A DNA stretch of 64,000 nt from an uncultured Candidatus Saccharibacteria bacterium. GTDB taxonomy: Bacteria > Patescibacteriota > Saccharimonadia > Saccharimonadales > CAYUUR01. Within the stretch, counting starts at the first letter, position 1. The number at the start of each line of letters is the position of its first letter. The notes under the pieces are model-generated. The model saw nothing but the letters and a program-made list of their open reading frames with translations, was not told the DNA's origin and made no database searches. Shown here piece after piece: positions 4,245 to 16,679 of the stretch. The position numbers and the translations under genes were made by a program. The stretch is from NCBI GenBank assembly GCA_964448075.1, contig CAYUUR010000004.1, positions 4,419 to 68,418 on the forward strand, in the 5' to 3' direction.

Positions 4245-4350
4245 TAAGCTCGGTGCGACAAATAGATTCAGCCCGGTTTGGTTGCTACACCTATGTCTTA
4301 GTGTTAGCATAAGTGTAATAGGTAAGTTAAGGTTGGTTGTTCTGACGAGA

Positions 4351-6450
4351 ATGAACGTAAGAATACGAAACGTGAGCGGATTTTTTGCCAAACTGTCGTT
4401 GTTAGGGCTATTCGCTATTCCTGTCGTTATGATGACTTTATCAGCTAATGCTGAAACGATAATTACAGACTACGAATATGCCAATATAATGGGCGGTACT
4501 GGGGCCGAAGTTACTAACGCTGTCGCAACTGACAGCAATAATAATGTATATGTAGCGGGTTATTTTAATGGTACTGTCGACTTTGACCCCGGCGCTGGCA
4601 CAGACAACAAAACATCGGCTGGGGGCAGGGATATCTTCGTAACTAAAATCAACGCTGACGGCAGTTACGGCTATACCAAAACCATGGGTGGCGTTGGCAC
4701 TGATGGGGCTAACGCCGTCGCTACCGACCAAGATGGCAATATATACATTGCTAGCCCCTTTAATGGCACCGCCGACTTTGACCCCGGCGCCGGCACTGAC
4801 AATAAAACTTCCGCCGGAAGCACAGATATCGCACTGACCAAAATCAACGCCGACGGCACCTATGGCTATACCAAAACAATCGGTGATACCGGTGCTGATA
4901 CTCCTTATACCCTCGCCACCGACCAAGGCGACAATATATACGTTGCAGGCGCCTTCACTGCCACAGTCGACTTTGATCCTGGCGCCGGCACCGACAACAA
5001 AACATCGGCAGGTGGCACAGATGCATTCCTGACCAAAATAAATGCCGACAGCAGTTACGGCTATACCAAGATTATTGGTGGTGCTAGTGCTGATAGTGCT
5101 TATGCTATTGCTACCGACCAAGACAATAACGTATACATAGCTGCCAGATTCTATGCCACCGCCGACTTCGACCCCGGCGCCGGCACCGACAACAAAACCT
5201 CCGCTGGGAATATGGACGCCTCACTAACCAAAATCAACGCTGACGGTACTTACGGCTATACTAAAACCATAGGCGGCACTGCCTATGATCAAGTGAATTC
5301 TCTCGCAACTGACCAAAACAATAATGTATACATTGCGGGTAATTTCCAAGGTACCGCTGACTTCGACCCTGGCGCTGGTACGGATAATAAAACAGCTACA
5401 GGCGGGTCTGATGATGGTTTTGTGACGCGAATAAACGCTGACGGCTCCTACGGCTATAGTAAGTTTTTCGGCAGTACTAATAACGATAATGTTTATGCCG
5501 TCACCACCGACCAGGATGGTTATATATACTTAGCAGGGGAGTATATAGGCACTTTAGACTTCGACCCGGGCGCTGGCACCGACATTAGAACATCAGTAGG
5601 GTGGTCTGATGCATTTCTCACAAAAATGAATGCCGACGGTACTTATGTCTACGCAAAAACCATGGAAGGACAAAGTGGAGCTGATGAAAGTTATGGTAGT
5701 TCTGTTGCTTCTGACTCGAGTAATAGTATCTATTTAGCAGGCTATTTTTGGGGCACCCTAGACTTTAACCCTGATGTAGCCACAGACAGCAAAACCTCCG
5801 CCGGCAGCAGTGATGTTTTCCTCACCAAACTCACCCAAACCACCTACCAACAAATCACTGGCCTTGCACCATCCCTCGCAGCTAAGACTCTCTCTAACAC
5901 AGACGCCACAGACAACACCATTGAAAACGGTACTAGTGCTACCATACGCCTGTCGCTGAGTGACACCACTCCCATCGCCGACGTCACCACCACCTTCACC
6001 ACTGACCTCAACTGGTCCACCGTGACCGCCGACTCTAACCTCACCACCGGCACTGCCTTTGCCCACAACCTCACAGCTGCAGACGGTACTGCTGGCACCT
6101 TCACTCTCTATGTCCCCAAACTCCCGAACCACACGAGAGTAGGCATCTGTCCTGGAGCGAGCTCCCTAGCAGCAACAACAGAACAATGCGAAGGACTGTA
6201 CTACCTCACAGAAGGAGTAGACAACAACCTCACCACCACAACCATAGATGCCCAAGACTACTGGACCATTACCGGCCTCACCGGCACCGGAGGCTTCAGT
6301 GCAGAGGCTGCAGCAACCACTACAGACGCAGACACCGATACAGACGCTTTGGCGGAGACGGGGGAGAGCCAGACAAATATCTTGTATATTTCGTTGATTA
6401 TTCTAGGGATTTCTATAATTCGTTTGCGAAGTCGATACAGCAAAGCTTAG
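4351..6450 (+). CDS. sortase-anchored surface protein, seven-bladed SBBP-type beta-propeller, LAETG sorting signal
   Basis: 699 aa from ATG 4351 (listed ORF starts at 4282). Signal peptide ends ...TLSANA. Seven ~65-aa repeats follow (DFDPGAGTDNKTSAG..D.F.TKINADG.YGYTK...ATDQ..N.YIAG), then a Thr/Ala-rich stalk. LAETG (6349-6363) is followed by a hydrophobic helix and an RLRSRYSKA tail. Confidence 0.85.
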   Translation: MNVRIRNVSGFFAKLSLLGLFAIPVVMMTLSANAETIITDYEYANIMGGTGAEVTNAVATDSNNNVYVAGYFNGTVDFDPGAGTDNKTSAGGRDIFVTKINADGSYGYTKTMGGVGTDGANAVATDQDGNIYIASPFNGTADFDPGAGTDNKTSAGSTDIALTKINADGTYGYTKTIGDTGADTPYTLATDQGDNIYVAGAFTATVDFDPGAGTDNKTSAGGTDAFLTKINADSSYGYTKIIGGASADSAYAIATDQDNNVYIAARFYATADFDPGAGTDNKTSAGNMDASLTKINADGTYGYTKTIGGTAYDQVNSLATDQNNNVYIAGNFQGTADFDPGAGTDNKTATGGSDDGFVTRINADGSYGYSKFFGSTNNDNVYAVTTDQDGYIYLAGEYIGTLDFDPGAGTDIRTSVGWSDAFLTKMNADGTYVYAKTMEGQSGADESYGSSVASDSSNSIYLAGYFWGTLDFNPDVATDSKTSAGSSDVFLTKLTQTTYQQITGLAPSLAAKTLSNTDATDNTIENGTSATIRLSLSDTTPIADVTTTFTTDLNWSTVTADSNLTTGTAFAHNLTAADGTAGTFTLYVPKLPNHTRVGICPGASSLAATTEQCEGLYYLTEGVDNNLTTTTIDAQDYWTITGLTGTGGFSAEAAATTTDADTDTDALAETGESQTNILYISLIILGISIIRLRSRYSKA
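4474..5835 (+). repeat. seven tandem coding repeats, period about 195 bp (propeller blades)
   Basis: The GACTT[TC]GACCC core recurs at 4579, 4774, 4969, 5164, 5359, 5557 and 5761 (spacing 195, 195, 195, 195, 198, 204 bp), all in frame within the 4351..6450 CDS. Confidence 0.85.
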
Positions 6451-6464
6451 TAACTATCTGTATA

Positions 6465-7064
6465 ATGGTAATGGTGAAAAAGAGAATTAAGTATAGTTAC
6501 GATAAGGGGTTGAAGCGGAATAAATTGATTTCCATAGCTTCGCTTGTGGTCGCATCGGTGTTATTTGCCACGGGTCTCTACTTACTGCTATTAACATTCG
6601 CTCCAGTACTTAACATCCCTGGGCTTAATGCGCCGACTTCCACAGCAGTAAGCAATGACGTTAATCGTGTGGTGATTGAGAAGATCGATGTAGACGTACC
6701 ATTTCATACAGGTGGACCAGAGGCGCTTGAGAAGGGCGCCTGGCACCGTTTTCCTGAACGTGGCGACCCTGAAAATGGCGGTAACTTCGTACTCAGCGCA
6801 CACCGCTTTCAGCTCGGTATCACACCCCAACAGACACGCGCCAAGTCGCCATTTTATAAGCTTGACCAATTAGAAACAGGCGACAAGATAGTAATAACAT
6901 TCAACAAGAAAACATATAACTATGAAGTGACAGATAAATACGATGTAGAACGAACTGCAGTGGAAATCGAAGCGCCGTCAGATGCGCACAAATTAACGCT
7001 ATATAGCTGCTCTCTCAAAGGCGAGAAAGACGGGCGTATCGTGATAGAAGCTAAGCAACTGTAG
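6465..7064 (+). CDS. sortase (class E-like, inferred from LAxTG substrates)
   Basis: 199 aa from ATG 6465. N-terminal TM anchor, then VLSAHR (catalytic His region), LTLYSCS (TLxTC-type Cys) and GRIVIEA (Arg region). Lies immediately downstream of an LAETG protein. Confidence 0.85.
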   Translation: MVMVKKRIKYSYDKGLKRNKLISIASLVVASVLFATGLYLLLLTFAPVLNIPGLNAPTSTAVSNDVNRVVIEKIDVDVPFHTGGPEALEKGAWHRFPERGDPENGGNFVLSAHRFQLGITPQQTRAKSPFYKLDQLETGDKIVITFNKKTYNYEVTDKYDVERTAVEIEAPSDAHKLTLYSCSLKGEKDGRIVIEAKQL

Positions 7065-7067
7065 ACA

Positions 7068-7096
7068 TTGATTTTGTTGTACAAAGGTTGTATAAT
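7068..7096 (+). promoter_or_regulatory. candidate sigma70-type promoter TTGATT-17-TATAAT
   Basis: TTGATT at 7068-7073, a 17-nt spacer, TATAAT at 7091-7096. Lies just after the sortase stop and upstream of the GGDEF gene. Confidence 0.4.
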
Positions 7097-7132
7097 AGGC
7101 ACGATATGGTTTGTTTGGAGAAAAATACTGAA

Positions 7133-7996
7133 ATGAGCGCTAATTTGGGCCATGAGGCTCAGATTGATGGGCTCTACGAGGCCATCAATAATTATGCAGA
7201 AATTGACTCCACAAATCTTTCGTACGAAGAGCTCTTTGTTGCTTACACAGGAGTTATGAGCGTTGCCCAAGATGCATTAGGCATAGCTTCAGTTTTAGCA
7301 GAAGAACGGAATAACGCACATACCGACGCAGTGTTAGAGAAGCATCGTGCTGATGAAGTAACTGCCGAGCGTGATAAGTTGAAGCGTGTAATCAACGAAC
7401 AACAAAGCGGCATAGACAGTACAACATTTGTTGGCAATCGTCCTTCGTTCGAACTACACCTTGAGGATGCCGTTAAGGCTGCTAGTGAACGCGGACATGC
7501 TGAGCTTGTATTAATCGGACTAGACCTTGAAAACCTGCACGGAATTAACGCGTCTTATGGTTACACGTCTGGCGGCGATGCTTTACTTGTGATGCTTGCG
7601 GAAAAGTTACAGAGTGAGGAAGTTCGTACTTCTGGGCAGCTTATGTGGCGAGCAGATGATGTATTCAGATATGGTGGTGATGAGTTCTTTGTTATTTGTC
7701 GTCATATAGCGCCACGAAAAGCGTCAATGAAGCGAGATGACGTTGCTCACGAGGAGCATGTTCGGATTGAGAATGAACTCGATTCCATTATTCACGCTGC
7801 TGCAGACCAACTTGAGCTAAAGGATGGCGAAAAACGGCCTCATGCAGGGGTTACTGTTACCATTGAGTCGATGCGACCAGGTGATAGTGCTAAGGAATTG
7901 AGATCACGCACTTTAGCTTCTTTACGTGGCGCCAAGCGATACAAGCAGTCACTCTTACAACGAAGAGGCATCTCGTATGCTCGTAACGACTATTGA
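7133..7996 (+). CDS. GGDEF-domain protein (putative diguanylate cyclase)
   Basis: C-terminal GGDEF domain (NRPSFELHL, LDLENLHGINASYGY.SGGD, RYGGDEFFVI) follows a ~110-aa helical N-terminus. Start is ambiguous: TTG 7088 overlaps the -10 box, leaving ATG 7106 or ATG 7133 (GGAG at 7117-7120). Confidence 0.75.
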   Translation: MSANLGHEAQIDGLYEAINNYAEIDSTNLSYEELFVAYTGVMSVAQDALGIASVLAEERNNAHTDAVLEKHRADEVTAERDKLKRVINEQQSGIDSTTFVGNRPSFELHLEDAVKAASERGHAELVLIGLDLENLHGINASYGYTSGGDALLVMLAEKLQSEEVRTSGQLMWRADDVFRYGGDEFFVICRHIAPRKASMKRDDVAHEEHVRIENELDSIIHAAADQLELKDGEKRPHAGVTVTIESMRPGDSAKELRSRTLASLRGAKRYKQSLLQRRGISYARNDY

Positions 7997-8029
7997 CTCT
8001 TATAGCACAACCGTTCGATAATAGAACCA

Positions 8030-8140
8030 ATGCATAAGCTTAACCAATCCGGCTTAATTCCCTTACTTGTCACCATTTTAATTATGGTGGTCGCGGTTAT
8101 CGTACTTGTTTTTATGCGCGTCAATCAGGCACAACGCTAG
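8030..8140 (+). CDS. possible 36-aa single-TM small protein
   Basis: ATG 8030 to TAG 8138-8140 encodes MHKLNQSGLIPLLVTILIMVVAVIVLVFMRVNQAQR. Below the ORF-track size cutoff, with no clear SD. Only the hydrophobic-helix pattern supports it. Confidence 0.25.
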   Translation: MHKLNQSGLIPLLVTILIMVVAVIVLVFMRVNQAQR

Positions 8141-8159
8141 ACGATGTTATAGTAGCTAC

Positions 8160-9161
8160 ATGATTAACGCACTCACTATCAAAGACAATACCCTGAGCCA
8201 AACCAAAGAAATGCTCAGGCACGAAATATTAGGGCGTGGTTGGGAGCTCTGGTTCTATGATGTGTCGTATCCACAGATGCGCGTGCGACGTTCCGATGGC
8301 AAGATACTGGAGCTCTACGGATCAACCCCGCCGACTACAAGCTATGCCGCAGGATTAACTGCAGACAATAAGCTCATTTCTTCTATCTTGCATGCAGAAG
8401 CTGGCCTACCTGTTCCAGAAACCTATGCGCTCAGTAGTGCTGATAGCGGCAAAAATATTGCCAATCAACTTTTAGATACACAAAAGAAAATTGTCGTGAA
8501 ACCTTTGGATGCTGCACACGGTAATGGCGTGAGCGTGGGGATTGAAACGATTGAGGCATTTGAGCAGGCGGTTGCGGTTGCGCGTGAATTCAGTAGCACC
8601 GTCATTGTACAAGAGCACCTAACACAAAGTTATGATATAAGACTCCTCTGCATTGACTATGCGTGTGTGGCTGGGCTTTTGCGCTTGCCAGCATCGGTAG
8701 TCGGCGATGGCAAGCAAACGGTCAGCCAGTTAATTGCTCATGAAAACACCGATGAACGCAGAGGTGTTAATTATGCCAAAGAACTCAACATTATAAACAT
8801 TGATCATGCTAAACGCTTCTTAGGCAAACAGATACATGATATTCCGCCAGCAGGTAAGCACGTGCAAGTGGTCGGGACTGCAAATGTTGGTACGGGGGGT
8901 TCAACAAAGGATATATCGCGCATCACTCCAGCCTGGCTGACGGCTATGGCTGAACAAGCAGCAAGAGCTTCGCGTCTGCCGTGCTGTGGTGTTGATTTTC
9001 TACTCAGCAGTGAGCCAAGCTTGCAAGCGACAGAGTCCGAGTTGCAACCCAAGCTCCTAGAAATCAACAAGTCGCCCTCGCTTTTTATTCACGAAACACC
9101 AACAGAAGGCGACTCAATGCCGGTTATCAAACAATACGTTGATTATCTAGCTAGTCTGTAG
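8160..9161 (+). CDS. ATP-grasp ligase resembling the N-terminal ATP-grasp module of cyanophycin synthetase
   Basis: 333 aa from ATG 8160. Collinear with my recollection of CphA: VVKPLDAAHGNGVSVGI, IVQEHL..YDIRLL, VVGDGKQTVSQLI, GTANVGTGGSTKDIS, CGVDFLL, LLEINKSPS. No Mur-ligase module. Confidence 0.75.
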   Translation: MINALTIKDNTLSQTKEMLRHEILGRGWELWFYDVSYPQMRVRRSDGKILELYGSTPPTTSYAAGLTADNKLISSILHAEAGLPVPETYALSSADSGKNIANQLLDTQKKIVVKPLDAAHGNGVSVGIETIEAFEQAVAVAREFSSTVIVQEHLTQSYDIRLLCIDYACVAGLLRLPASVVGDGKQTVSQLIAHENTDERRGVNYAKELNIINIDHAKRFLGKQIHDIPPAGKHVQVVGTANVGTGGSTKDISRITPAWLTAMAEQAARASRLPCCGVDFLLSSEPSLQATESELQPKLLEINKSPSLFIHETPTEGDSMPVIKQYVDYLASL

Positions 9162-10389
9162 AAGTTGTTACATAGACAGCAGTGTTCAGATAATCTACAT
9201 CACGTGTAAACTGCGCAAGGTCAGGATTATGCAGCATGACGACAGCAGTCATTTTGTAACCGTCAGATGATTTACCAATTTTGTCACCTGGCCTATATTT
9301 GAGCTTGTAGTCGATTAATGAGGGCAGCTTCTGTAGTTCTGCCTCGTGTGCGATTCCAGTAAATATACCTGGTGTTTTAGGAAACAGCTCGAACACGCCA
9401 AATGGATCATTTCTCTTTGGGGCGATCAGTGGTGTTTTTCCGAGAGATAAACGCAGCGCGTTACCCGTGATATCGATACCATTTGCTATGTCATGCATAC
9501 GACTGCGGTACCCCCCGTTGCGCGCGCCAATCTCTACTATTCGTGGTCCGTCGGTTGTGAGAATAATTTCGATATGTGCTGCGGTGCTTTTCATGCCGAG
9601 TGCCCGACAGCCCAGAGCGGCAGTTTCACGAATTTCTTGGATCTTGCTTGCGGGCAGGGCAGATGGCAGTAGTCGACTATAGTGAAAGTTATCATCGTAG
9701 CCGATATCGTGTCCGGTTTGATAGTCAACGACCTCTTGTAATACAAAAGGTTGGCCAGTGCTATCTACAAACGCATCGACCGAATGGATGCTTCCTTCCA
9801 TAAATTCCTCGATGATAAACTGAGGTTTCTGATGCGGTGCATAGCGCTTATAAATTGCTGATTGTTTAGCCTGAATACGAGCAAATGATTCGAGCATCTC
9901 AGACTCGTTTGATACCTTGCTCACGAGGAGACTCTTTGCGAGGTTTGTGGGTTTGATGATCAATGGAAAAGCATGATTACGTGCGAAGTCCGTGAGGTCT
10001 TGCGCCGTGTTAACAATTGCAAAGTCTGGACTGATCTTAGCCGGCGCTTGTGCAAATAACTGGCGCATGACGAATTTGTCTGTGCAGGCTTGTGCCGCGG
10101 CAACAGGGCAACCGGCCAGGTCATATCTCTCTGCAAGTTTAGCGGCGATCACGATATATTGCTCGTAGAGCGCATAGACAGCATCAAAGGCGTGCACTTT
10201 ATGTAACTCATCAGCAGCAGCTATAATACTGGATTCATTAGAGAAGTCGCAGAGTACGCGACGCTTTATATGTTTATCTGGGTTAGCAACAGCGTGGTTG
10301 TCGCGCAGCAACACGTATTCGTTACCGTGGTCGAGGATGTATTTGTTGAGGCCACTGAAGCTCTGGCCAACGATTAAAATAGTGCTCAT
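9151..10389 (-). CDS. ATP-grasp carboxylate-amine / L-amino-acid-ligase-type enzyme
   Basis: 412 aa from ATG 10389 (listed ORF uses TTG 10398). Pre-ATP-grasp N-domain, PLIIKPTN, IIEEFMEGS, AHIEIILTTDGPRIVEIGARNGG. Its 3' end overlaps the convergent gene by 11 bp. Confidence 0.7.
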   Translation of the reverse strand: MSTILIVGQSFSGLNKYILDHGNEYVLLRDNHAVANPDKHIKRRVLCDFSNESSIIAAADELHKVHAFDAVYALYEQYIVIAAKLAERYDLAGCPVAAAQACTDKFVMRQLFAQAPAKISPDFAIVNTAQDLTDFARNHAFPLIIKPTNLAKSLLVSKVSNESEMLESFARIQAKQSAIYKRYAPHQKPQFIIEEFMEGSIHSVDAFVDSTGQPFVLQEVVDYQTGHDIGYDDNFHYSRLLPSALPASKIQEIRETAALGCRALGMKSTAAHIEIILTTDGPRIVEIGARNGGYRSRMHDIANGIDITGNALRLSLGKTPLIAPKRNDPFGVFELFPKTPGIFTGIAHEAELQKLPSLIDYKLKYRPGDKIGKSSDGYKMTAVVMLHNPDLAQFTRDVDYLNTAVYVTTSTD

Positions 10390-10391
10390 GC

Positions 10392-10420
10392 TTGACAAAA
10401 TTACCTTTTCATAATAAAAT
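10392..10420 (+). promoter_or_regulatory. candidate sigma70-type promoter TTGACA-17-TAAAAT
   Basis: Consensus TTGACA at 10392-10397, an exactly 17-nt spacer, TAAAAT at 10415-10420, 68 nt upstream of the rimB-like ATG. AAAATTACC is repeated at 10397 and 10416. Confidence 0.45.
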
Positions 10421-10487
10421 TACCATAAATTCATACAGAATTCAAGGTATTAGATACGCGTTTTGATACTATATAAGTGGTTCGTAT

Positions 10488-10985
10488 ATGAAAAAAGATT
10501 ACATTAGAAAAGTCGTTATTGGTCGCGCAGAGCTCTTGCATTTTATGGAGTTCTCGATTGCTGACGTACCCGCAAAGGTAGACACCGGCGCATATCGTTC
10601 ATCAGTCCATGCTGACAATATTGCCTTGAATGATGACGGTACAGAACTAACCTTCCGTCTACTTGGCCAACACCCCTTGTTCAAAACGGTCGCCGAGACG
10701 GTAACTACAAAGAACTTTGAGCGCGTCTGGGTGACAAATTCTTTTGGTCAAAGAGAAGAGCGGTTCGAAGTAAAGCTCAAAGTAAAGATCGGGCCAAAGG
10801 TGTTCTGGGGCAAGTTTACCTTGGCTAACCGGGCAAAGATGCTATATCCGATTCTGCTTGGACGTACGTTGCTCAATAAGCGATTTCTTGTTGACCCGTC
10901 GCTACAAGGTGTTAACAGGCTCGAATTAAAGAAGCAGTATGGTATCGTATTGCCAATAGACGAAGAAGAGGAATACAAAACATGA
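10488..10985 (+). CDS. RimK-associated retropepsin-like protease (RimB / ATP-dependent zinc protease family)
   Basis: 165 aa with AKVDTGAYRSSVHA and PILLGRTLL motifs typical of the family found next to rimK. Its stop overlaps the rimK start (ATGA). Confidence 0.75.
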   Translation: MKKDYIRKVVIGRAELLHFMEFSIADVPAKVDTGAYRSSVHADNIALNDDGTELTFRLLGQHPLFKTVAETVTTKNFERVWVTNSFGQREERFEVKLKVKIGPKVFWGKFTLANRAKMLYPILLGRTLLNKRFLVDPSLQGVNRLELKKQYGIVLPIDEEEEYKT

Positions 10986-11896
10986 ATATAGCAATTCTAT
11001 CCAATGGCCCCGGCAACTATTCAACTAAGCGTCTCAAAGAAGAGGCTTTGCTTCGTGGTCACACGGTACGCATTGTTAAGTATCGTGATTGTTATGCTGC
11101 AATCGAGCGTAGTAACCCGGCGGTAAGCTACCGAGGTGAAGATCTGCGCGGTATTGATGCTGTCATCCCGAGGATTGCTAGCAGCATGACTCGTTACGGT
11201 GCAGCTATTGTGCGTCAGTTCGAGATGCAGGGTGTGTACACGACCTCCACCTCCATTGCAATTGTACGTTCTCGCGACAAGCTGCGTAGCTTGCAGCTGC
11301 TTACTAGAACCGGTGTGGGCATCCCAAAGACTGTCTTCTCGCGGAACACTGCCGATATTGACGATTTGCTAGAGCAAGTCGGTGGCACTCCTGTTGTGAT
11401 AAAGCTGGCCCGTGGAACACACGGCAATGGCGTAGTACTGGCGGAGACCAAAAAGGCAGCCAAATCAGTACTTCAGGCGTTTTATTTGCACAACGAAGAC
11501 GGCACTAACATTCTGCTGCAGGAATTTATCGAAGAGGCTGGCGGTGAAGATATTCGTGCATTTGTGGTTGGCGGACGGGTTGTTGCCAGTATGAAGCGTC
11601 AAAGCCTTGACGATGACTTCCGTAGTAACCTACACCAAGGTGGTGAAGGTTCGGTTGTGAAGCTGACTGACGAAGAAAAGAAAACAGCCATCAAAGCCGC
11701 TCGTGCGATGGGTCTGCCAATCTGTGGCGTAGACATGATGCGCTCAACACATGGACCCCTTGTGCTTGAAGTGAATTCCAGCCCTGGTTTTGGCATCGAG
11801 AAGGTGACCGGACGTAACGTTGCGGCGCCAATTATTGATTATATCGAGCGAAACGCCACCAGCAAACGGGGCAAGCGTGATCGTATCGGCGCTTAA
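10982..11896 (+). CDS. rimK: RimK-family alpha-L-glutamate ligase (ribosomal protein S6 modification type)
   Basis: 304 aa ATP-grasp: MNIAILS.., VVIKLARGTHGNGVVLAE, ILLQEFIEEAGGEDIRAFVVGGRVV, GVDMMRS..GPLVLEVNSSPG. Confidence 0.9.
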   Translation: MNIAILSNGPGNYSTKRLKEEALLRGHTVRIVKYRDCYAAIERSNPAVSYRGEDLRGIDAVIPRIASSMTRYGAAIVRQFEMQGVYTTSTSIAIVRSRDKLRSLQLLTRTGVGIPKTVFSRNTADIDDLLEQVGGTPVVIKLARGTHGNGVVLAETKKAAKSVLQAFYLHNEDGTNILLQEFIEEAGGEDIRAFVVGGRVVASMKRQSLDDDFRSNLHQGGEGSVVKLTDEEKKTAIKAARAMGLPICGVDMMRSTHGPLVLEVNSSPGFGIEKVTGRNVAAPIIDYIERNATSKRGKRDRIGA

Positions 11897-12320
11897 GGCG
11901 CAATGGCGACTTGTTTTCGTTGTAGTATTTTTTCTGTTCTGCGCGCTGTTTGTGCCATTTCTGTATGAGCCGCGCAAGCTTGAAGTAGGATCGCAACTCT
12001 ATAGCATAGAGTACGCGAGTACGTCTGCGAAGCGCGAGATGGGGTTGTCTAATCGTGATTCCTTGCCAAGTGACACTGCCATGATTTTTGACTTTGGTAA
12101 ACCTGGTAAGTACTGCATATGGATGAAAGACATGCGTTTTCCGATCGATATTCTGTGGGTGGGTGCAGACAGGAAGGTTGCTGAAATACGACAAAACGTA
12201 CCACCAGATTCGTACCCAGAAAGTTTCTGCCCTAACACTGACGTCTCCTATGTGATTGAGCTCAATGCTGGCGAGGTAGCGCAGAGTGGTATCAGCGAAG
12301 GTGAACCTATCAGTTTTTGA
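11877..12320 (+). CDS. DUF192-domain protein with N-terminal membrane anchor
   Basis: GLSNRDSLPSDTAMIFDF..YCIWMKDMRFPIDILWV..VIELNAG matches the DUF192 pattern. There is no in-frame ATG before the domain except the listed 11820 start deep inside rimK, so in-frame GTG 11877, overlapping the rimK end, is the likelier start. Confidence 0.65.
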   Translation: MIVSALKAQWRLVFVVVFFLFCALFVPFLYEPRKLEVGSQLYSIEYASTSAKREMGLSNRDSLPSDTAMIFDFGKPGKYCIWMKDMRFPIDILWVGADRKVAEIRQNVPPDSYPESFCPNTDVSYVIELNAGEVAQSGISEGEPISF

Positions 12321-12347
12321 TTCCGCTCATGGTATGATTACTGCTAT

Positions 12348-12839
12348 ATGACGCCGTATATAATTCTTGGTATTTTGTTGGGCCTACCACTTGCTTTGGG
12401 TGTTTTATTTCGTGTTAGTGCGTCCGCGCTGTTCTTTAGTGTCATGGCTGGTGAGCTGCTTGGTCGCTATTTTCATAGTGAGGCAGGTGAAATCGCCCGA
12501 TCGTTCTTTAAGACCAACGCTGCCGCCGAATACGCTGAAGCATTCATAATCGTATTACCGATGTTCCTGACAGCACTCTTTATGCACGGATCAATATCTC
12601 GCGGCAAGACCGTCCTGCATGTTGTGCCTCTCGCAATCACTGGTATTGTACTGGCTGCATTTGTCTTGCCGATCCTACCGTACGAGATTCAACAGCAAGT
12701 TGCTACCATTCCGTTTGGTAAGCAGTTACTGGATACGCACAACATGATTATTGGCGTCGTGGTTTTGTTACAACTGATATCACTCTGGCTGCTCAGCCGT
12801 GCTCCCGGCGAGCCCCACAAAAAGAGCCACAAGAAGTAG
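12348..12839 (+). CDS. hypothetical integral membrane protein
   Basis: 163-aa ORF with about five hydrophobic helices and a basic tail. No recognisable domain. Confidence 0.55.
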   Translation: MTPYIILGILLGLPLALGVLFRVSASALFFSVMAGELLGRYFHSEAGEIARSFFKTNAAAEYAEAFIIVLPMFLTALFMHGSISRGKTVLHVVPLAITGIVLAAFVLPILPYEIQQQVATIPFGKQLLDTHNMIIGVVVLLQLISLWLLSRAPGEPHKKSHKK

Positions 12840-12868
12840 TTAACAGTCATTGTTTGTCGTCTAGCCTA

Positions 12869-13165
12869 TTAAAAGTTTAGGCTGAAACCAAAGAACCATA
12901 CAATGCTTACAGTTGCAATTACCGAGAGCGTGACGATGCTAATTACAGATAAAGATTTACGCTTTTTGAGATAGTATCCAGTAACTGCAAGAGCAAAAAC
13001 AAGTGAATACACATCCGGATGCTGTGCACCATCAAACAACAAAGCATAGTTAGAAAGGTTTGTGTTGAATGATTGCAAATAGAAAAGAGAGGCAATAAAC
13101 GCAAGAATCTCTAGAGGCTGAATTGCGTTAAGCTTATTCTGTGTTTTTTTGTTTGATTTCGGCAT
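12869..13165 (-). CDS. hypothetical small membrane protein
   Basis: 98 aa from ATG 13165 (MPKSNKKTQNK.. then three hydrophobic helices). The listed TTG start at 13243 would include the promoter-like TGTTATAAT. Confidence 0.45.
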   Translation of the reverse strand: MPKSNKKTQNKLNAIQPLEILAFIASLFYLQSFNTNLSNYALLFDGAQHPDVYSLVFALAVTGYYLKKRKSLSVISIVTLSVIATVSIVWFFGFSLNF

Positions 13166-13192
13166 AGGATACCCCACATTTAATTTACCAGA

Positions 13193-13201
13193 ATTATAAC
13201 A
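13193..13201 (-). promoter_or_regulatory. extended -10 element TGtTATAAT
   Basis: The minus strand reads TGTTATAAT (13201 down to 13193), 27 nt upstream of ATG 13165. Confidence 0.35.
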
Positions 13202-13332
13202 TAGGCATATGTACGCCGACTCTTCTGATTGACTTTTTAGCAAAAATAAGCATAATGTAAGAAGTTATTTTCCTAAGTTTGGTGCAAAAAGGAAAAGAGC
13301 AGCCCGAGCAAAACAAAGGTTTTCTCACCTAG

Positions 13333-13409
13333 GGGTCCATAGCTCAGCTGGTTAGAGCACCTGCCTTTTAAGCAGGGTGTCGTGGGTTCGAGTCCCACTG
13401 GACCCTCCA
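13333..13409 (+). tRNA. tRNA-Lys (anticodon TTT), CCA encoded
   Basis: Hand-folded cloverleaf: acceptor GGGTCCA/TGGACCC, D arm GCTC..GAGC, anticodon stem CCTGC/GCAGG with loop CTTTTAA (TTT at 13367-13369), T arm GTGGG-TTCGAGT-CCCAC, discriminator T, CCA. Confidence 0.95.
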
Positions 13410-13447
13410 ATAAAAACGCCTCATCGAAGATGGGGTATTTTTATTGG
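13407..13447 (+). terminator. hairpin whose outer stem starts with the tRNA CCA (CCAATAAAAA...TTTTTATTGG)
   Basis: Outer 10-bp A/T stem plus inner CCTCATC-GAA-GATGGGG stem containing a U-G pair (forms only in the plus-strand RNA). T-rich 3' arm. Confidence 0.6.
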
Positions 13448-13546
13448 TTGATCTCGTAGAGATTGAACGCACGAAGTGGGTGCGTTCATAAGGAGTGCGC
13501 GCAGGAATTTATTCCGAGCACATGACGCAATGGTTCGCAGAACATA
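13411..13546 (+). other. 136-nt module between direct repeats of the tRNA-Lys 3' end
   Basis: Bounded by exact 17-nt repeats (13394-13410 and 13547-13563). Contains hairpins at 13465-13487 and 13504-13515. Collinear blocks are shared with the 137-nt module at tRNA-His. Confidence 0.5.
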
Positions 13547-15023: not shown

Positions 15024-16679
15024 CTATGCAGGTGGAGGAGCAGTCACAATCTTGCGCGATTCTTTTTTGACCTGCTTACCCTGGTCGTCAACTTCATAAA
15101 CAAGTATTTCTCCAAACGGCATTTCTAGTTTGGCGACATCAGCATCGGAAATACCTTCAATGTATTTCATCAGGGCACGGATGGCGTTTCCGTGCGATAC
15201 AACCAGTACGTTCTGACCATCAAGCACTTTTGGCAGAATTTTTTCCGTATAGAACGGCACGGCACGGGCATAGACGTCTTTGAGCGATTCGCCGTTTGGC
15301 ACAGGGAAGTTCCATTCACGCCGGATGCGGTTAAATGTCTCTTCGCCGATGCTGTCGCGCATTTCCCACTTATTCTTGCCCGTATAATCGCCATAGTCAC
15401 GTTCGTTAATTGCATCACTGCGTTCAAATTGAACGTCAAATTGTTGCGAAGAATCGAGGATGCCCTCTAATGTTTCGAGCGCTCGAATCTGCTGGGATGT
15501 GAAAGCATAATCTATTGGCACATCAACAAGTTGCTGACCCAGCAAGGCAGCCTCGCGGAAGCCTTTTTCGCTCAAGTGCACATCCGTACTGCCAGTCCAC
15601 TTGCCGAGCGCGTTCCATTCTGATTCGCCATGACGAGTGATGAGCAGCTTGCCTGTTTTTTTGGTAGGAGGTTTGACCATATTGGTTGGTTTGCCTTCCA
15701 AAAAGCTGACGATGTTTTGAGCGGTCGTTTGGTTGATACGTTGGATTGCTTCGTAGGTGTTGTAGGCTATGTGTGGAGTAATGATGACATTGGGCATCTT
15801 TTTGAGTGCACTGATTTCTACACTCATCTCGAGCATACTTGTTGGTAGTTTTTCACGACGGAGCAAGAGCAGCTCTTCTTCAACGCTGAGTAGTTTTTCA
15901 CCTTCTATCACGTCAAGTCCAAGACCGCCGATTTGACCATTTTGTTTTGCCTCAAGCAGTGCTTTGGTATCAATAAGTTCACCACGGGCAGTGTTGATTA
16001 GCACTGCTCCGCGTTGCATTTTGCTGAGAGTCTCGGCGTTGATCAAGTGGTGATTTTCTGGAGTGTAGGGAATATGCAAAGACAAAACGTGACACTTCTT
16101 AATAGCCGTTTCAAAATCTACATATTCAAAGCCGATTTCCTTGGCGACCTCATCTTTTGGAAAGGGGTCGTAACCAATCACTTCCATGCCAAAGCCTCGA
16201 GCGATGCGCGCCATGTACTGGCCGATATGGCCACAGCCAAGAATCGCTAGGGTTTTGCCTTTGAGGTCATGGCCAGTGAGGGTGGGTGCATTGATGCTTC
16301 CAGACTTGACCGCTTCTAGTGTGCCGGGGATCTGCCTGGTTAAAGATAACAAAAGTGCAAAGGCATATTCAGCAACGGTGTTTTCGCCATAGGTCGGCAC
16401 ATTCACAACGACGATATTTTGAGCAGACACGGCGTTAAAGTCGATGTTGTTGTAGCCAGTCGAACGGCAAGCTATCAGACGGAGTTTGGGCATTTTGGCA
16501 ATTATTTCGGCCGTCACATCACTAGTTACAAATACGGATATAATCTCGGCTTCTGGGTCGGCATTCTCGGCGTTTATTGATTCGCCTACAAACCTATAAT
16601 CTTTCTGGACTTCATTTAATCCGTCTGTTAGATGAGACGTGTCTGTTTGGGTTGCATCATAAAAGACTATACTGGACAT
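15024..16679 (-). CDS. fusion protein: D-lactate-type D-2-hydroxyacid dehydrogenase (N) + 2,3-bisphosphoglycerate-dependent phosphoglycerate mutase (C)
   Basis: 551 aa. Residues 1-~340 carry GKTLAILGCGHIGQ (NAD fold), INTARGELID, LGLDVIEGE and ITPHIAYNT. Residues ~350-551 carry LLITRHGESEWN and VVSHGNAIRAL (histidine-phosphatase dPGM). Domain junction is near 15650. Confidence 0.9.
   Translation of the reverse strand: MSSIVFYDATQTDTSHLTDGLNEVQKDYRFVGESINAENADPEAEIISVFVTSDVTAEIIAKMPKLRLIACRSTGYNNIDFNAVSAQNIVVVNVPTYGENTVAEYAFALLLSLTRQIPGTLEAVKSGSINAPTLTGHDLKGKTLAILGCGHIGQYMARIARGFGMEVIGYDPFPKDEVAKEIGFEYVDFETAIKKCHVLSLHIPYTPENHHLINAETLSKMQRGAVLINTARGELIDTKALLEAKQNGQIGGLGLDVIEGEKLLSVEEELLLLRREKLPTSMLEMSVEISALKKMPNVIITPHIAYNTYEAIQRINQTTAQNIVSFLEGKPTNMVKPPTKKTGKLLITRHGESEWNALGKWTGSTDVHLSEKGFREAALLGQQLVDVPIDYAFTSQQIRALETLEGILDSSQQFDVQFERSDAINERDYGDYTGKNKWEMRDSIGEETFNRIRREWNFPVPNGESLKDVYARAVPFYTEKILPKVLDGQNVLVVSHGNAIRALMKYIEGISDADVAKLEMPFGEILVYEVDDQGKQVKKESRKIVTAPPPA

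Follow-up and report, generated by a model that had tools for sequence, protein, structure and literature searches.

A conserved rim operon and a variable island of ATP-grasp ligases and peptidases in Saccharibacteria

Saccharibacteria live as epibionts, their genomes measuring about 1 Mb, and a cluster of three ATP-grasp ligases in one of them raises the question of what these enzymes act on and whether they work together. The cluster lies in a 64,000-nucleotide stretch of a contig from an uncultured Candidatus Saccharibacteria bacterium, referred to here as the window. It comprises a gene for a GGDEF protein, genes for two ATP-grasp ligases that we call ATPg1 and ATPg2, and a rim operon encoding a RimB-like peptidase, the ligase RimK, a DUF192 protein, and a membrane protein, TM163 (Table 1). 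A preliminary description, made from the sequence, had named this an expanded RimK-type module; the label is a fair one, with RimB-RimK as the conserved core, and all six genes that it listed lie where it placed them, with families that agree with the Pfam and NCBIfam assignments. Comparison of related loci showed that the conserved element in Saccharibacteria is rimB-rimK-DUF192-TM163, located 3′ of dnaJ behind a strongly conserved promoter, and that ATPg1, ATPg2, RimK paralogues, and MATCAP-like and S51 peptidases make up a variable island in the dnaJ-rimB interval. Our preferred explanation, to which we give about an even chance, is that the rim operon forms a core to which two further ATP-grasp ligases have been added, with ATPg1 probably acting on acidic tails like those of RimK and RimB.

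About 100 related loci were compared, collected with three separate baits: ATPg1, RimK, and ATPg2. The ATPg1-anchored set was drawn from genome contigs and exact-protein look-ups, and family hidden Markov models (HMMs) were mapped on the open reading frames (ORFs) of 27 Patescibacteria loci, the window included; the genome scan used a narrower alignment (A2), a 16-sequence alignment (A1) being too diverse. The RimK-anchored set consists of metagenome contigs, split into loci at 66% identity or more and loci from other phyla at 49 to 59% identity, and the counts of ATPg1 and GGDEF upstream of RimK refer to 23 loci with 3 kb of upstream flank at the higher identity and to 15 loci from other phyla. 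Protein families were assigned with Pfam and NCBIfam HMMs, and gene junctions were read straight from the sequence. The closest genome record, "Patescibacteria group bacterium MAG_90," encodes an ATPg1 that is 90% identical, in an unchanged gene order; the more distant loci bear the labels Candidatus Saccharibacteria or Saccharimonadales.

Among the RimK-anchored loci, RimB is found directly 5′ of RimK in 39 of 40 at the higher identity, versus 11 of 22 in other phyla, and DUF192, TM163, or both follow RimK in 26 of 31, versus 0 of 24. The ATPg1-anchored loci gave a similar picture, with RimB and RimK adjacent in 20 of the 27, dnaJ just 5′ in 20, a TM163 family member in 20, and DUF192 in 16. 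The translationally coupled rimB-rimK-DUF192 operon of the preliminary description was evident from an ATGA overlap between rimB and rimK and a 20-nt overlap between rimK and the DUF192 gene, which has a GTG start at position 11877; the operon runs on, past DUF192, into TM163 as a fourth gene. Start/stop overlaps within the operon were seen in the window and in loci L001, L004, and L167.

RimK passes the NCBIfam equivalog model NF007764 (score 336.3 bits, cut-off 331) and contains both the Rimk_N domain (PF18030, 117.9 bits) and the RimK ATP-grasp domain (PF08443, 200.5 bits). It is 64 to 83% identical across Saccharibacteria, and in L001/L008 it is 100% identical, the neighboring proteins there being 75 to 98% identical. 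That genomes of this size keep RimK, with RimB and usually the two membrane proteins, suggests that the rim system is important in Saccharibacteria. The RimB-like protein carries a DTG motif (KVDTGAY) and has no hydrophobic N terminus. It scored under the equivalog cut-offs for RimB (NF052261, 53.9 bits versus 200) and RloA3 (60.1 versus 210), and we therefore regard it as a divergent member of the RimB/RloA superfamily; the name of its Pfam family, PF05618 "Zn_protease," is a historical misnomer, the family being retropepsin-like. RimB C termini form clade-specific classes, that of the window reading LPIDEEEEYKT (10950-10985). A tail of the form FP[INSD]DEEEGR(E) is found in most loci with ATPg2 beside rimB and also in L005, which is without ATPg2, and the form N.EL..DPY.FH.KY occurs in other clades (L005-L022 compared with L006, L023-L025, and L090-L133). 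We considered the acidic DEEE C terminus as a possible self-substrate; because its purine-rich codons fall 8 to 20 nt before the rimK ATG, the tail may double as, or may simply be, the rimK ribosome-binding site.

The DUF192 protein scored 101.6 bits with PF02643, against a gathering score of 27, and has a hydrophobic segment within residues 1 to 33, in keeping with the membrane anchor described earlier. Its relatives in the PDB are 3pjy (a "hypothetical signal peptide protein," 3.6e-16) and 3m7a, and a gene call of the identical length, 147 amino acids (aa), is present in L001 and L173. A literature search found no functional study of DUF192, and the rim linkage would be the first consistent functional neighborhood for this domain. 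TM163 gave no match in a Pfam search and has no recognizable transporter domain by that search; it belongs to the same family as a protein of 158 to 171 aa found 3′ of DUF192 in most Saccharibacteria loci.

The TTGACA-17-TAAAAT promoter reported upstream of rimB is present, and was the best promoter-like match in a scan of the region (11/12), although the total of such matches was not above that in shuffled sequences. We take the promoter as real because of its conservation, not because of the scan count: the block CTTGACAAA..TTTT.ATAATAAAATTA.CA is kept in L008, L011, L012, L013, L167, L168, and L170, whose proteins are merely 45 to 60% identical to those of the window. The rimB operon leader is about 65 nt long, and yielded neither a consensus RNA structure with RNAalifold nor a match in Rfam. 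An Rfam search with permissive filters over positions 6500 to 13500 returned one tRNA only, and no cyclic di-GMP (c-di-GMP) riboswitch; the tRNA gene (13333-13406, plus strand; RF00005, 73.9 bits) is located about 500 nt 3′ of the conserved block.

Gene fusions are what most strongly tie ATPg1 in function to RimB and RimK. In L007, L020, P0098, P0105, and P0109 the C terminus of ATPg1 is fused to a RimB domain with an intact DTG motif, and in L007 and L020, where the flanks were examined, rimK follows directly. A separate fusion, in P0066, has a ligase half of the window's subtype; joining of ATPg1 to RimB is thus seen in two lineages or more. RimB also occurs joined to RimK paralogues, N-terminal in some proteins and C-terminal in others. 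These fusions point to ATPg1 as a second tail ligase.

The preliminary description had recognized the likeness of ATPg1 to cyanophycin synthetase (CphA), correctly, but had taken it to be collinear with the N module; the match (NF010623/TIGR02068, profile positions 204 to 471, 1e-51) is to the central G domain, CphA residues ∼160 to 475. A sequence search of the PDB gave CphA1 (7lgn, 4.7e-34), followed by GshAB and CphA2, with RimK far weaker. The AlphaFold2 (AF2) model of ATPg1, with a predicted local distance difference test (pLDDT) score of 91.4, matched GshF and the G domains of CphA1 and CphA2 in Foldseek at TMq 0.77 to 0.83, compared with 0.53 for RimK. The nearest genomic relatives beyond the Patescibacteria are CphA proteins of full length (850 to 930 aa), in which the match starts at about residue 183 to 217. 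The placement of ATPg1 relative to CphA was addressed with a neighbor-joining (NJ) tree, in which the CphA G domains formed one clade in 200 of 200 bootstraps, with the main Saccharibacteria stand-alone group outside it. Alignments of ATPg1 covered the G domain only; neither the N domain nor the MurE-like M domain was present.

Residues invariant in ATPg1 are K114, H120, R161, R175, N242, D279, E301, and N303, and the general catalytic set of the CphA G domain (the ATP-binding Lys, P-loop His267, Arg309, Asp431, and Glu450) is present, a set that is not CphA-specific because it is common to RimK. Residue roles were taken from TeCphA1 (PMC9427784) and StCphA2 (PMC10273328), in which an acidic residue (TeCphA1 E215, StCphA2 D212) binds the arginine side chain of cyanophycin and Arg458 holds the α-carboxylate of the incoming Asp. 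The E215 position is acidic in 18 of 18 CphA proteins (16 E, 2 D) and is K, H, L, R, or T in 25 stand-alone proteins; the R458 position is R in all 18 CphA proteins and K or R in RimK, and F, G, Y, T, or A in the stand-alone proteins. ATPg1 from the window has L66 and F309 at these positions. Basic residues at the E215 position were considered as a sign of an acidic acceptor, and rejected as too weak, the window having Leu and RimK having Asp or Asn there. Because it has neither the N and M domains nor the two CphA-specific substrate residues, ATPg1 is very probably not a cyanophycin synthetase; its residues indicate instead a competent ligase acting on a C-terminal carboxylate.

An exhaustive search for ATPg1 yielded 162 representative clusters at E ≤1e-30, mostly of 310 to 340 aa, with some of 455 to 490 aa. 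Five giant proteins of 1100 to 2400 aa (P0265, P0267, P0277, P0310, and P0331) contain two or three ATPg1-like stretches, as tandem ligase modules. L021 has two copies of ATPg1, of which the second keeps Arg458 and falls among the true CphA G domains. A metabolic reconstruction of Saccharimonadia (bioRxiv 10.64898/2026.09.16.751625) lists "cyanophycin synthetase" genes in 5 of 21 metagenome-assembled genomes; if these encode 333-aa stand-alone G-domain proteins, the inference of cyanophycin synthesis is doubtful. Our analysis indicates that the label used in at least this one reconstruction is wrong, and that the preprint reading and the matching database labels are over-annotations of a stand-alone CphA-G-like ligase.

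ATPg2 converges on ATPg1, with the 11-bp overlap noted previously visible in the sequence (9151-9161), and diverges from rimB. It scored just under the gathering cut-off for LAL_C2 (28.4 bits versus 29.4), and its best PDB matches are L-amino-acid ligases (LALs) at 4e-16 to 5e-14, including BL00235 (3vot, 3.9e-16, 62.1 bits) and BacD; the NCBIfam BacD model gave 56.8 bits against a cut-off of 850. Of its 865 homologues, the best 120 are all at least 53% identical, and the source-named entries among those 120 carry Saccharibacteria, Saccharimonadales, or generic labels only. ATPg2 adjoins rimB divergently in many genomes, even those without ATPg1, and either ATPg2 or a distant LAL paralogue is present in 14 of the 27 ATPg1-anchored loci. 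One ATPg2-anchored locus contains four ATP-grasps, and L021 (1683-7109), L013, and L169 have four or five side by side, namely a RimK paralogue, one or two copies of ATPg1, ATPg2, and RimK.

The island also supplies peptidases. A MATCAP-family (PF08014) peptidase is encoded in 5 of the 27 ATPg1-anchored loci. In many Saccharibacteria this putative metallopeptidase (PF08014/TIGR02421 "QEGLA") is just 5′ of ATPg1 or RimB, as in L005, L006, L007, L017, L020, L093, L097, L098, L101-L103, and L105-L108; none of the loci compared had both a MATCAP-family gene and ATPg2, and a literature search found no paper joining DUF1704 with an ATP-grasp. A Peptidase_S51 gene lies directly 5′ of ATPg1 in four of the 27 loci (L010, L013, L015, and L016), divergent from the ligase genes; its product is weakly like cyanophycinase and PepE, far under the cut-offs (cyanophycinase, 31.7 bits versus 126.6). 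PADLOC defense-system models gave no match to the seven module proteins.

The GGDEF gene reported in the preliminary description is present, but the start given, 7133, is an internal in-frame ATG, and an identical database protein (P0241) begins at the ATG at 7106. Five homologues were found in 5.8e9 proteins, with identities of 100, 91, 86, 49, and 48%. The Pfam match spans profile positions 3 to 97 of 161, the C-terminal half being divergent. In a provisional alignment with PleD and WspR reference sequences, RYGGDEF, D140, N148, D158, and K277 (PleD D327, N335, D344, and K442) are kept at 48 to 49% identity, the K332 equivalent is His, the R446 equivalent is Gln or Lys, and the RxxD motif sits one residue nearer GGDEF than usual. 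The protein is plausibly active as a cyclase. In L170, which encodes the 49% homologue, the order dnaJ-sortase-GGDEF-ATPg1-ATPg2-RimB-RimK-DUF192-TM is kept, and L010, L018, and L080 encode, between dnaJ and ATPg1, another type of coiled-coil GGDEF protein, with 30% identity across 76 residues. The conservation of the neighborhood expected by the preliminary description thus holds for the rim core, but not for GGDEF, which occurs in 5 of the 27 ATPg1-anchored loci, three of them without RimB and canonical RimK, and upstream of RimK in 0 of 23 loci at the higher identity and 0 of 15 in other phyla. GGDEF and canonical RimK occur together only in the window's clade. In the window the GGDEF gene is transcribed as a unit of its own, with two genes and about 2.5 kb between it and rimB. 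We conclude that a GGDEF gene recurs at this position, but that it neither tracks RimK nor belongs to the operon.

How these components might work together can be considered from the known enzymes. At the expense of ATP, RimK attaches L-glutamates to a C-terminal carboxylate, which in characterized systems is that of ribosomal protein S6, and it also makes free poly-α-glutamate; in Pseudomonas, a retropepsin-like RimB dimer binds RimK, stimulates poly-α-Glu synthesis, and trims poly-Glu (PMC11957791, PMC12239564, PMC10092738). The CphA G domain and the C-module of GshF phosphorylate a peptide at its C-terminal α-carboxylate and then attach a single building block. By homology, RimK in Saccharibacteria would tail S6 with glutamate and RimB would trim the tail. 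ATPg1 would extend another peptide or protein C terminus with a different nucleophile, since its catalytic residues are kept and the residues for the Arg side chain and the Asp α-carboxylate are lost; since it is fused to RimB in independent lineages, its substrate may be an acidic tail or peptide like that handled by RimK and RimB, which it would prime, cap, or extend with an alternative residue. ATPg2 would most likely supply or join free amino acids or dipeptides, and the GGDEF protein would be a lineage-specific neighbor, outside the conserved machine, that may add a c-di-GMP input. The sequences show directly who the genes are, the conserved core and promoter, the fusions, and the residue patterns; what the ligases act on, whether ATPg1 and ATPg2 are coupled to RimK, and any part played by DUF192 and TM163 are what we infer here.

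Several observations weigh against this explanation. No rpsF gene, encoding S6, was found by tblastn or a three-sequence HMM in the window or in 167 collected sequences, so that the link to S6 comes from homology, and the RimB-like protein falls below the RimB equivalog cut-off. ATPg1 is 5′ of RimK in only 2 of 23 RimK-anchored loci at the higher identity, and in 0 of 15 from other phyla, and RimBK therefore does not need ATPg1. Conversely, L010, L018, L019, and L080 have ATPg1, a distant LAL (ATPg2′), DUF192, and TM163, in that order, without RimB and canonical RimK, so ATPg1 can work without them; the components can evidently work in different combinations. The locus sets were chosen by bait, with no phylogenetic dereplication, and synteny by itself says little about a common function, the genomes of Saccharibacteria being small, with much gene order in common, and the block being beside the dnaK-dnaJ operon.

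A small-peptide pathway, to which the same loci without RimB lend some support, strikes us as less than likely: ATPg2 would make a dipeptide and ATPg1 would add a third residue, giving a soluble osmolyte, thiol, or storage peptide, and the genes would merely be beside the rim operon. In L010, L018, L019, and L080 the distant LAL is co-directional with ATPg1, LALs are known dipeptide synthetases, with BL00235 and BacD as the best PDB matches of ATPg2, and the logic parallels that of GshA/GshB or Ngg, ATPg1 being near the GshF C-module, with the GshAB C-terminal module (144.8 bits) and N-acetylglutaminylglutamine synthetase (144.5 bits) as its next-best HMMs. In the window, however, ATPg1 and ATPg2 are convergent and not co-transcribed, ATPg2 adjoins rimB elsewhere without ATPg1, and the ATPg1-RimB fusions occur in genomes without ATPg2, with rimK directly after them in L007 and L020; ATPg1 is also without the basic residue that binds the α-carboxylate of a free amino acid in CphA and RimK. 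An envelope polymer we consider rather improbable. Here RimK and the extra ligases would make an acidic peptide, TM163 would pass it through the membrane, and the anchored DUF192 protein would handle it outside, S6 not being the main target. The RimK-DUF192-TM163 block is co-directional, often overlapping, and specific to Saccharibacteria by the counts given above; the DUF192 homologue nearest to it among solved structures carries a signal-peptide annotation, suggesting that the domain is exported, and the window protein has one N-terminal hydrophobic segment. A precedent is the Rlo system, whose retropepsin and membrane protein act on the envelope together with an ATP-grasp in the cytosol (PMC12239564). 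Against this, RimB has no signal peptide, the Pfam search and the literature search offered neither a transporter domain in TM163 nor a function for DUF192, and DUF192-TM163 also follows ATPg1-ATPg2′ without RimK, and in L071 lies 1.4 kb from ATPg1, so that the link may be positional. A broader version of the tail explanation, modular writing and erasing of C termini, is one that we regard as speculative and unlikely. RimK and up to four further ATP-grasps (CphA-G-like, LAL-like, and RimK paralogues) would be the writers, and the RimB retropepsin, the MATCAP-like metallopeptidase, and the S51 peptidase the erasers, of tails that are mixed in composition instead of pure poly-Glu, carried by S6 or some other protein; alternatively they would deliver an acidic peptide to DUF192 and TM163, with c-di-GMP as an input in a few lineages.

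The preliminary description offered, as one of two hypotheses, tailing of S6 or another target tuned by c-di-GMP, with the adjacent cyclase in place of the RimA phosphodiesterase of Pseudomonas. Its account of the Pseudomonas rimABK operon agrees with the literature, and c-di-GMP does stimulate the ATPase of Pseudomonas RimK, but crystal structures have not revealed where on RimK it binds (PMC10092738). The GGDEF motif, the metal and guanine residues, and RxxD are kept at 48% identity, the order from sortase to RimK is kept in L170, and another coiled-coil GGDEF gene takes the same position in three loci. Those three loci, however, are without RimB and canonical RimK, the K332 and R446 equivalents are substituted, the gene is transcribed separately from rimB, the riboswitch search of the region was negative, and EAL, HD-GYP, and PilZ signatures were absent from the window in a crude search for motifs. 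With GGDEF limited to few lineages, and accompanied by RimK only in the window's clade, c-di-GMP control of RimK is weakly supported, and we judge it unlikely. A cyanophycin-type pathway, in which ATPg1 would be a minimal CphA2-like polymerase using scavenged β-Asp-Arg to remake cyanophycin or another branched polymer of its kind, with side chains attached by the other ligases and degradation by the S51 peptidases, has in its favor the names used in databases and in the 2026 preprint, and the S51 gene just 5′ of ATPg1 in four loci. We hold it to be very improbable: ATPg1 has 333 aa and no N or M domain (CphA2 has ∼640 aa and CphA1 ∼880), the arginine-binding acidic residue and R458 are lost in the stand-alone family, which is outside the CphA clade in the NJ tree, and the window module has no S51 gene, the S51 protein elsewhere scoring far below the cyanophycinase cut-off. 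Finally, the extra ATP-grasps might be housekeeping enzymes, D-Ala-D-Ala ligase (Ddl) or glutathione synthetase (GshB), to whose models they have weak HMM similarity. As the preliminary description had assumed, they are not; the scores (ATPg1, 25.9 bits versus 245.65 for Ddl and 18.3 versus 272 to 299 for GshB; ATPg2, 35 to 39 versus 243 to 520 for Ddl) effectively refute this identity, the best solved relatives are CphA and the GshF C-module for ATPg1 and LALs for ATPg2, and the chance that remains is negligible.

The remaining features of the region are summarized in Table 1 and below. The interval between dnaJ and rimB in the window also carries, besides the GGDEF gene, genes for a sortase and an LAETG substrate of the sortase. 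The latter, a 722-aa protein (4282-6450, plus strand), has many repeats of the DFDPGAGTDNKTSAG type and ends in LAETG, a hydrophobic stretch, and RLRSRYSKA, which constitute a sortase sorting signal; the sortase gene (PF04203; 6186/6510-7064, plus strand) is directly 3′, and in this lineage the two genes form an insertion that separates dnaJ from the ligase island. The small membrane ORF between the GGDEF gene and ATPg1 (MHKLNQSGLIPLLVTILIMVVAVIVLVFMRVNQAQR) has a well-conserved counterpart in L170, although the GGDEF protein beside it there shares only 49% identity, and for this reason is probably a real small gene. A 551-aa ORF (15024-16679, minus strand) looks, from its translation, like a fusion of a D-2-hydroxyacid-dehydrogenase-like N-terminal half, with a GCGHIGQ NAD motif, and a C-terminal half resembling histidine phosphatases/phosphoglycerate mutases (RHGESEWN).

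Table 1. Features of the ligase island and rim operon in the window
Feature	Coordinates	Strand	Evidence
Coiled-coil + GGDEF protein, 296 aa	7106..7996	+	PF00990, 53.8 bits; TIGR00254, 50.7 bits
Small membrane ORF, 36 aa, single-pass	8030..8140	+	Sequence reading; gene call in L001 and L173
ATPg1, stand-alone ATP-grasp ligase, 333 aa	8160..9161	+	NF010623, TIGR02068 at 1e-51
ATPg2, L-amino-acid-ligase-type ATP-grasp, 412 aa	9151..10389	-	ATP-grasp_4, 75.6 bits
Sigma-70-type promoter of the rimB operon, TTGACA-17-TAAAAT	10392..10420	+	Scan 11/12 and conservation
RimB-like retropepsin-type aspartic peptidase, 165 aa, cytosolic	10488..10985	+	PF05618, 63.9 bits
RimK, α-L-glutamate ligase, S6-modifying type, 304 aa	10982..11896	+	NF007764, 336.3 bits
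DUF192 protein, N-terminal membrane anchor, 147 aa	11877..12320	+	PF02643, 101.6 bits
TM163, polytopic membrane protein, 163 aa, ∼5 transmembrane helices	12348..12839	+	Hydropathy; ends the conserved block

To our knowledge, work on ribosome tailing by RimK and RimB has been confined almost entirely to Pseudomonas and E. coli. The RimB-RimK pair itself is known and widespread, 44% of rim-containing genomes having both genes. What appear to be new are the Saccharibacteria-specific extension of the operon by DUF192 and TM163, a CphA-G-like ligase that occurs either alone or fused to RimB, and the variable set of extra ligases and peptidases around the rim core; a literature search found no paper describing any of these, and none among its ranked results that links RimK with Saccharibacteria.

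In Pseudomonas rimABK, as in the window, RimB is immediately 5′ of RimK and translationally coupled to it, has the DTG motif and no signal peptide, and is paired with a RimK above the S6-ligase cut-off. RimA, the EAL c-di-GMP phosphodiesterase that is co-transcribed with rimB and rimK in Pseudomonas, has no counterpart in the window module, where GGDEF is encoded separately, and in few lineages; the operon instead adds DUF192 and the five-helix protein, absent from all 24 RimK loci outside Saccharibacteria, and is accompanied by extra ligases. The RimBK hybrid of Desulfotalea psychrophila (DP2392; Little et al. 2025), an N-terminal RimB joined to RimK and proteolytically active, shares with relatives of the window the fusion of a RimB-type peptidase to an ATP-grasp, and some of the Saccharibacteria RimB-RimK paralogue fusions have the matching order. 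Saccharibacteria also have the reverse order, with ATPg1 or a RimK paralogue N-terminal to RimB, whereas in the window itself the genes are separate.

For ATPg1, the G domain of CphA1 and CphA2 provides the same Gcore, Glid, and Gomega fold, with 30 to 37% identity by tblastn to the G domains of CphA loci, 21 to 31% by Foldseek to the solved CphA1 and CphA2 structures, a TMq of ∼0.8, and the catalytic residues including the P-loop His; the differences are that ATPg1 stands alone, belongs to a separate clade, and has neither the acidic residue for the Arg side chain nor the Asp-holding Arg. The C-module of GshF supplies the top Foldseek matches (3ln6 and 3ln7) and a chemistry that adds one residue to the C-terminal carboxylate of a peptide, but ATPg1 is not fused to a GshA module, scores far under the GshAB cut-off, and has the P-loop His of CphA and RimK, which is Tyr or Phe in GshF (PMC9427784). 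ATPg2 has in common with the LALs (BacD/YwfE, BL00235, RizA/RizB, and DdaF) an ATP-grasp_4 core and, at a score just short of the cut-off, an LAL_C2-like C-terminal region; its similarity to them is low, it is not in a recognizable antibiotic cluster, and it forms a conserved Saccharibacteria family divergent from rimB.

The Pseudomonas RloABC system, consisting of a secreted retropepsin, a seven-helix pseudo-transglutaminase, and an ATP-grasp, likewise combines a retropepsin-like peptidase, one or more ATP-grasps, and membrane proteins, but the window peptidase is cytosolic, and DUF192 and TM163 are unrelated to RloB. The enzymes of tubulin tails (TTL/TTLL with MATCAP/CCP) offer an analogy only: there is no tubulin here, and the window has no MATCAP gene. 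In the tubulin system, too, several ATP-grasp C-terminal ligases are paired with tail peptidases, and relatives of the window carry a MATCAP-family PF08014 peptidase in the position of ATPg2; if modular tails of the kind outlined above are indeed made, the Saccharibacteria system would be a bacterial counterpart of the tubulin code.

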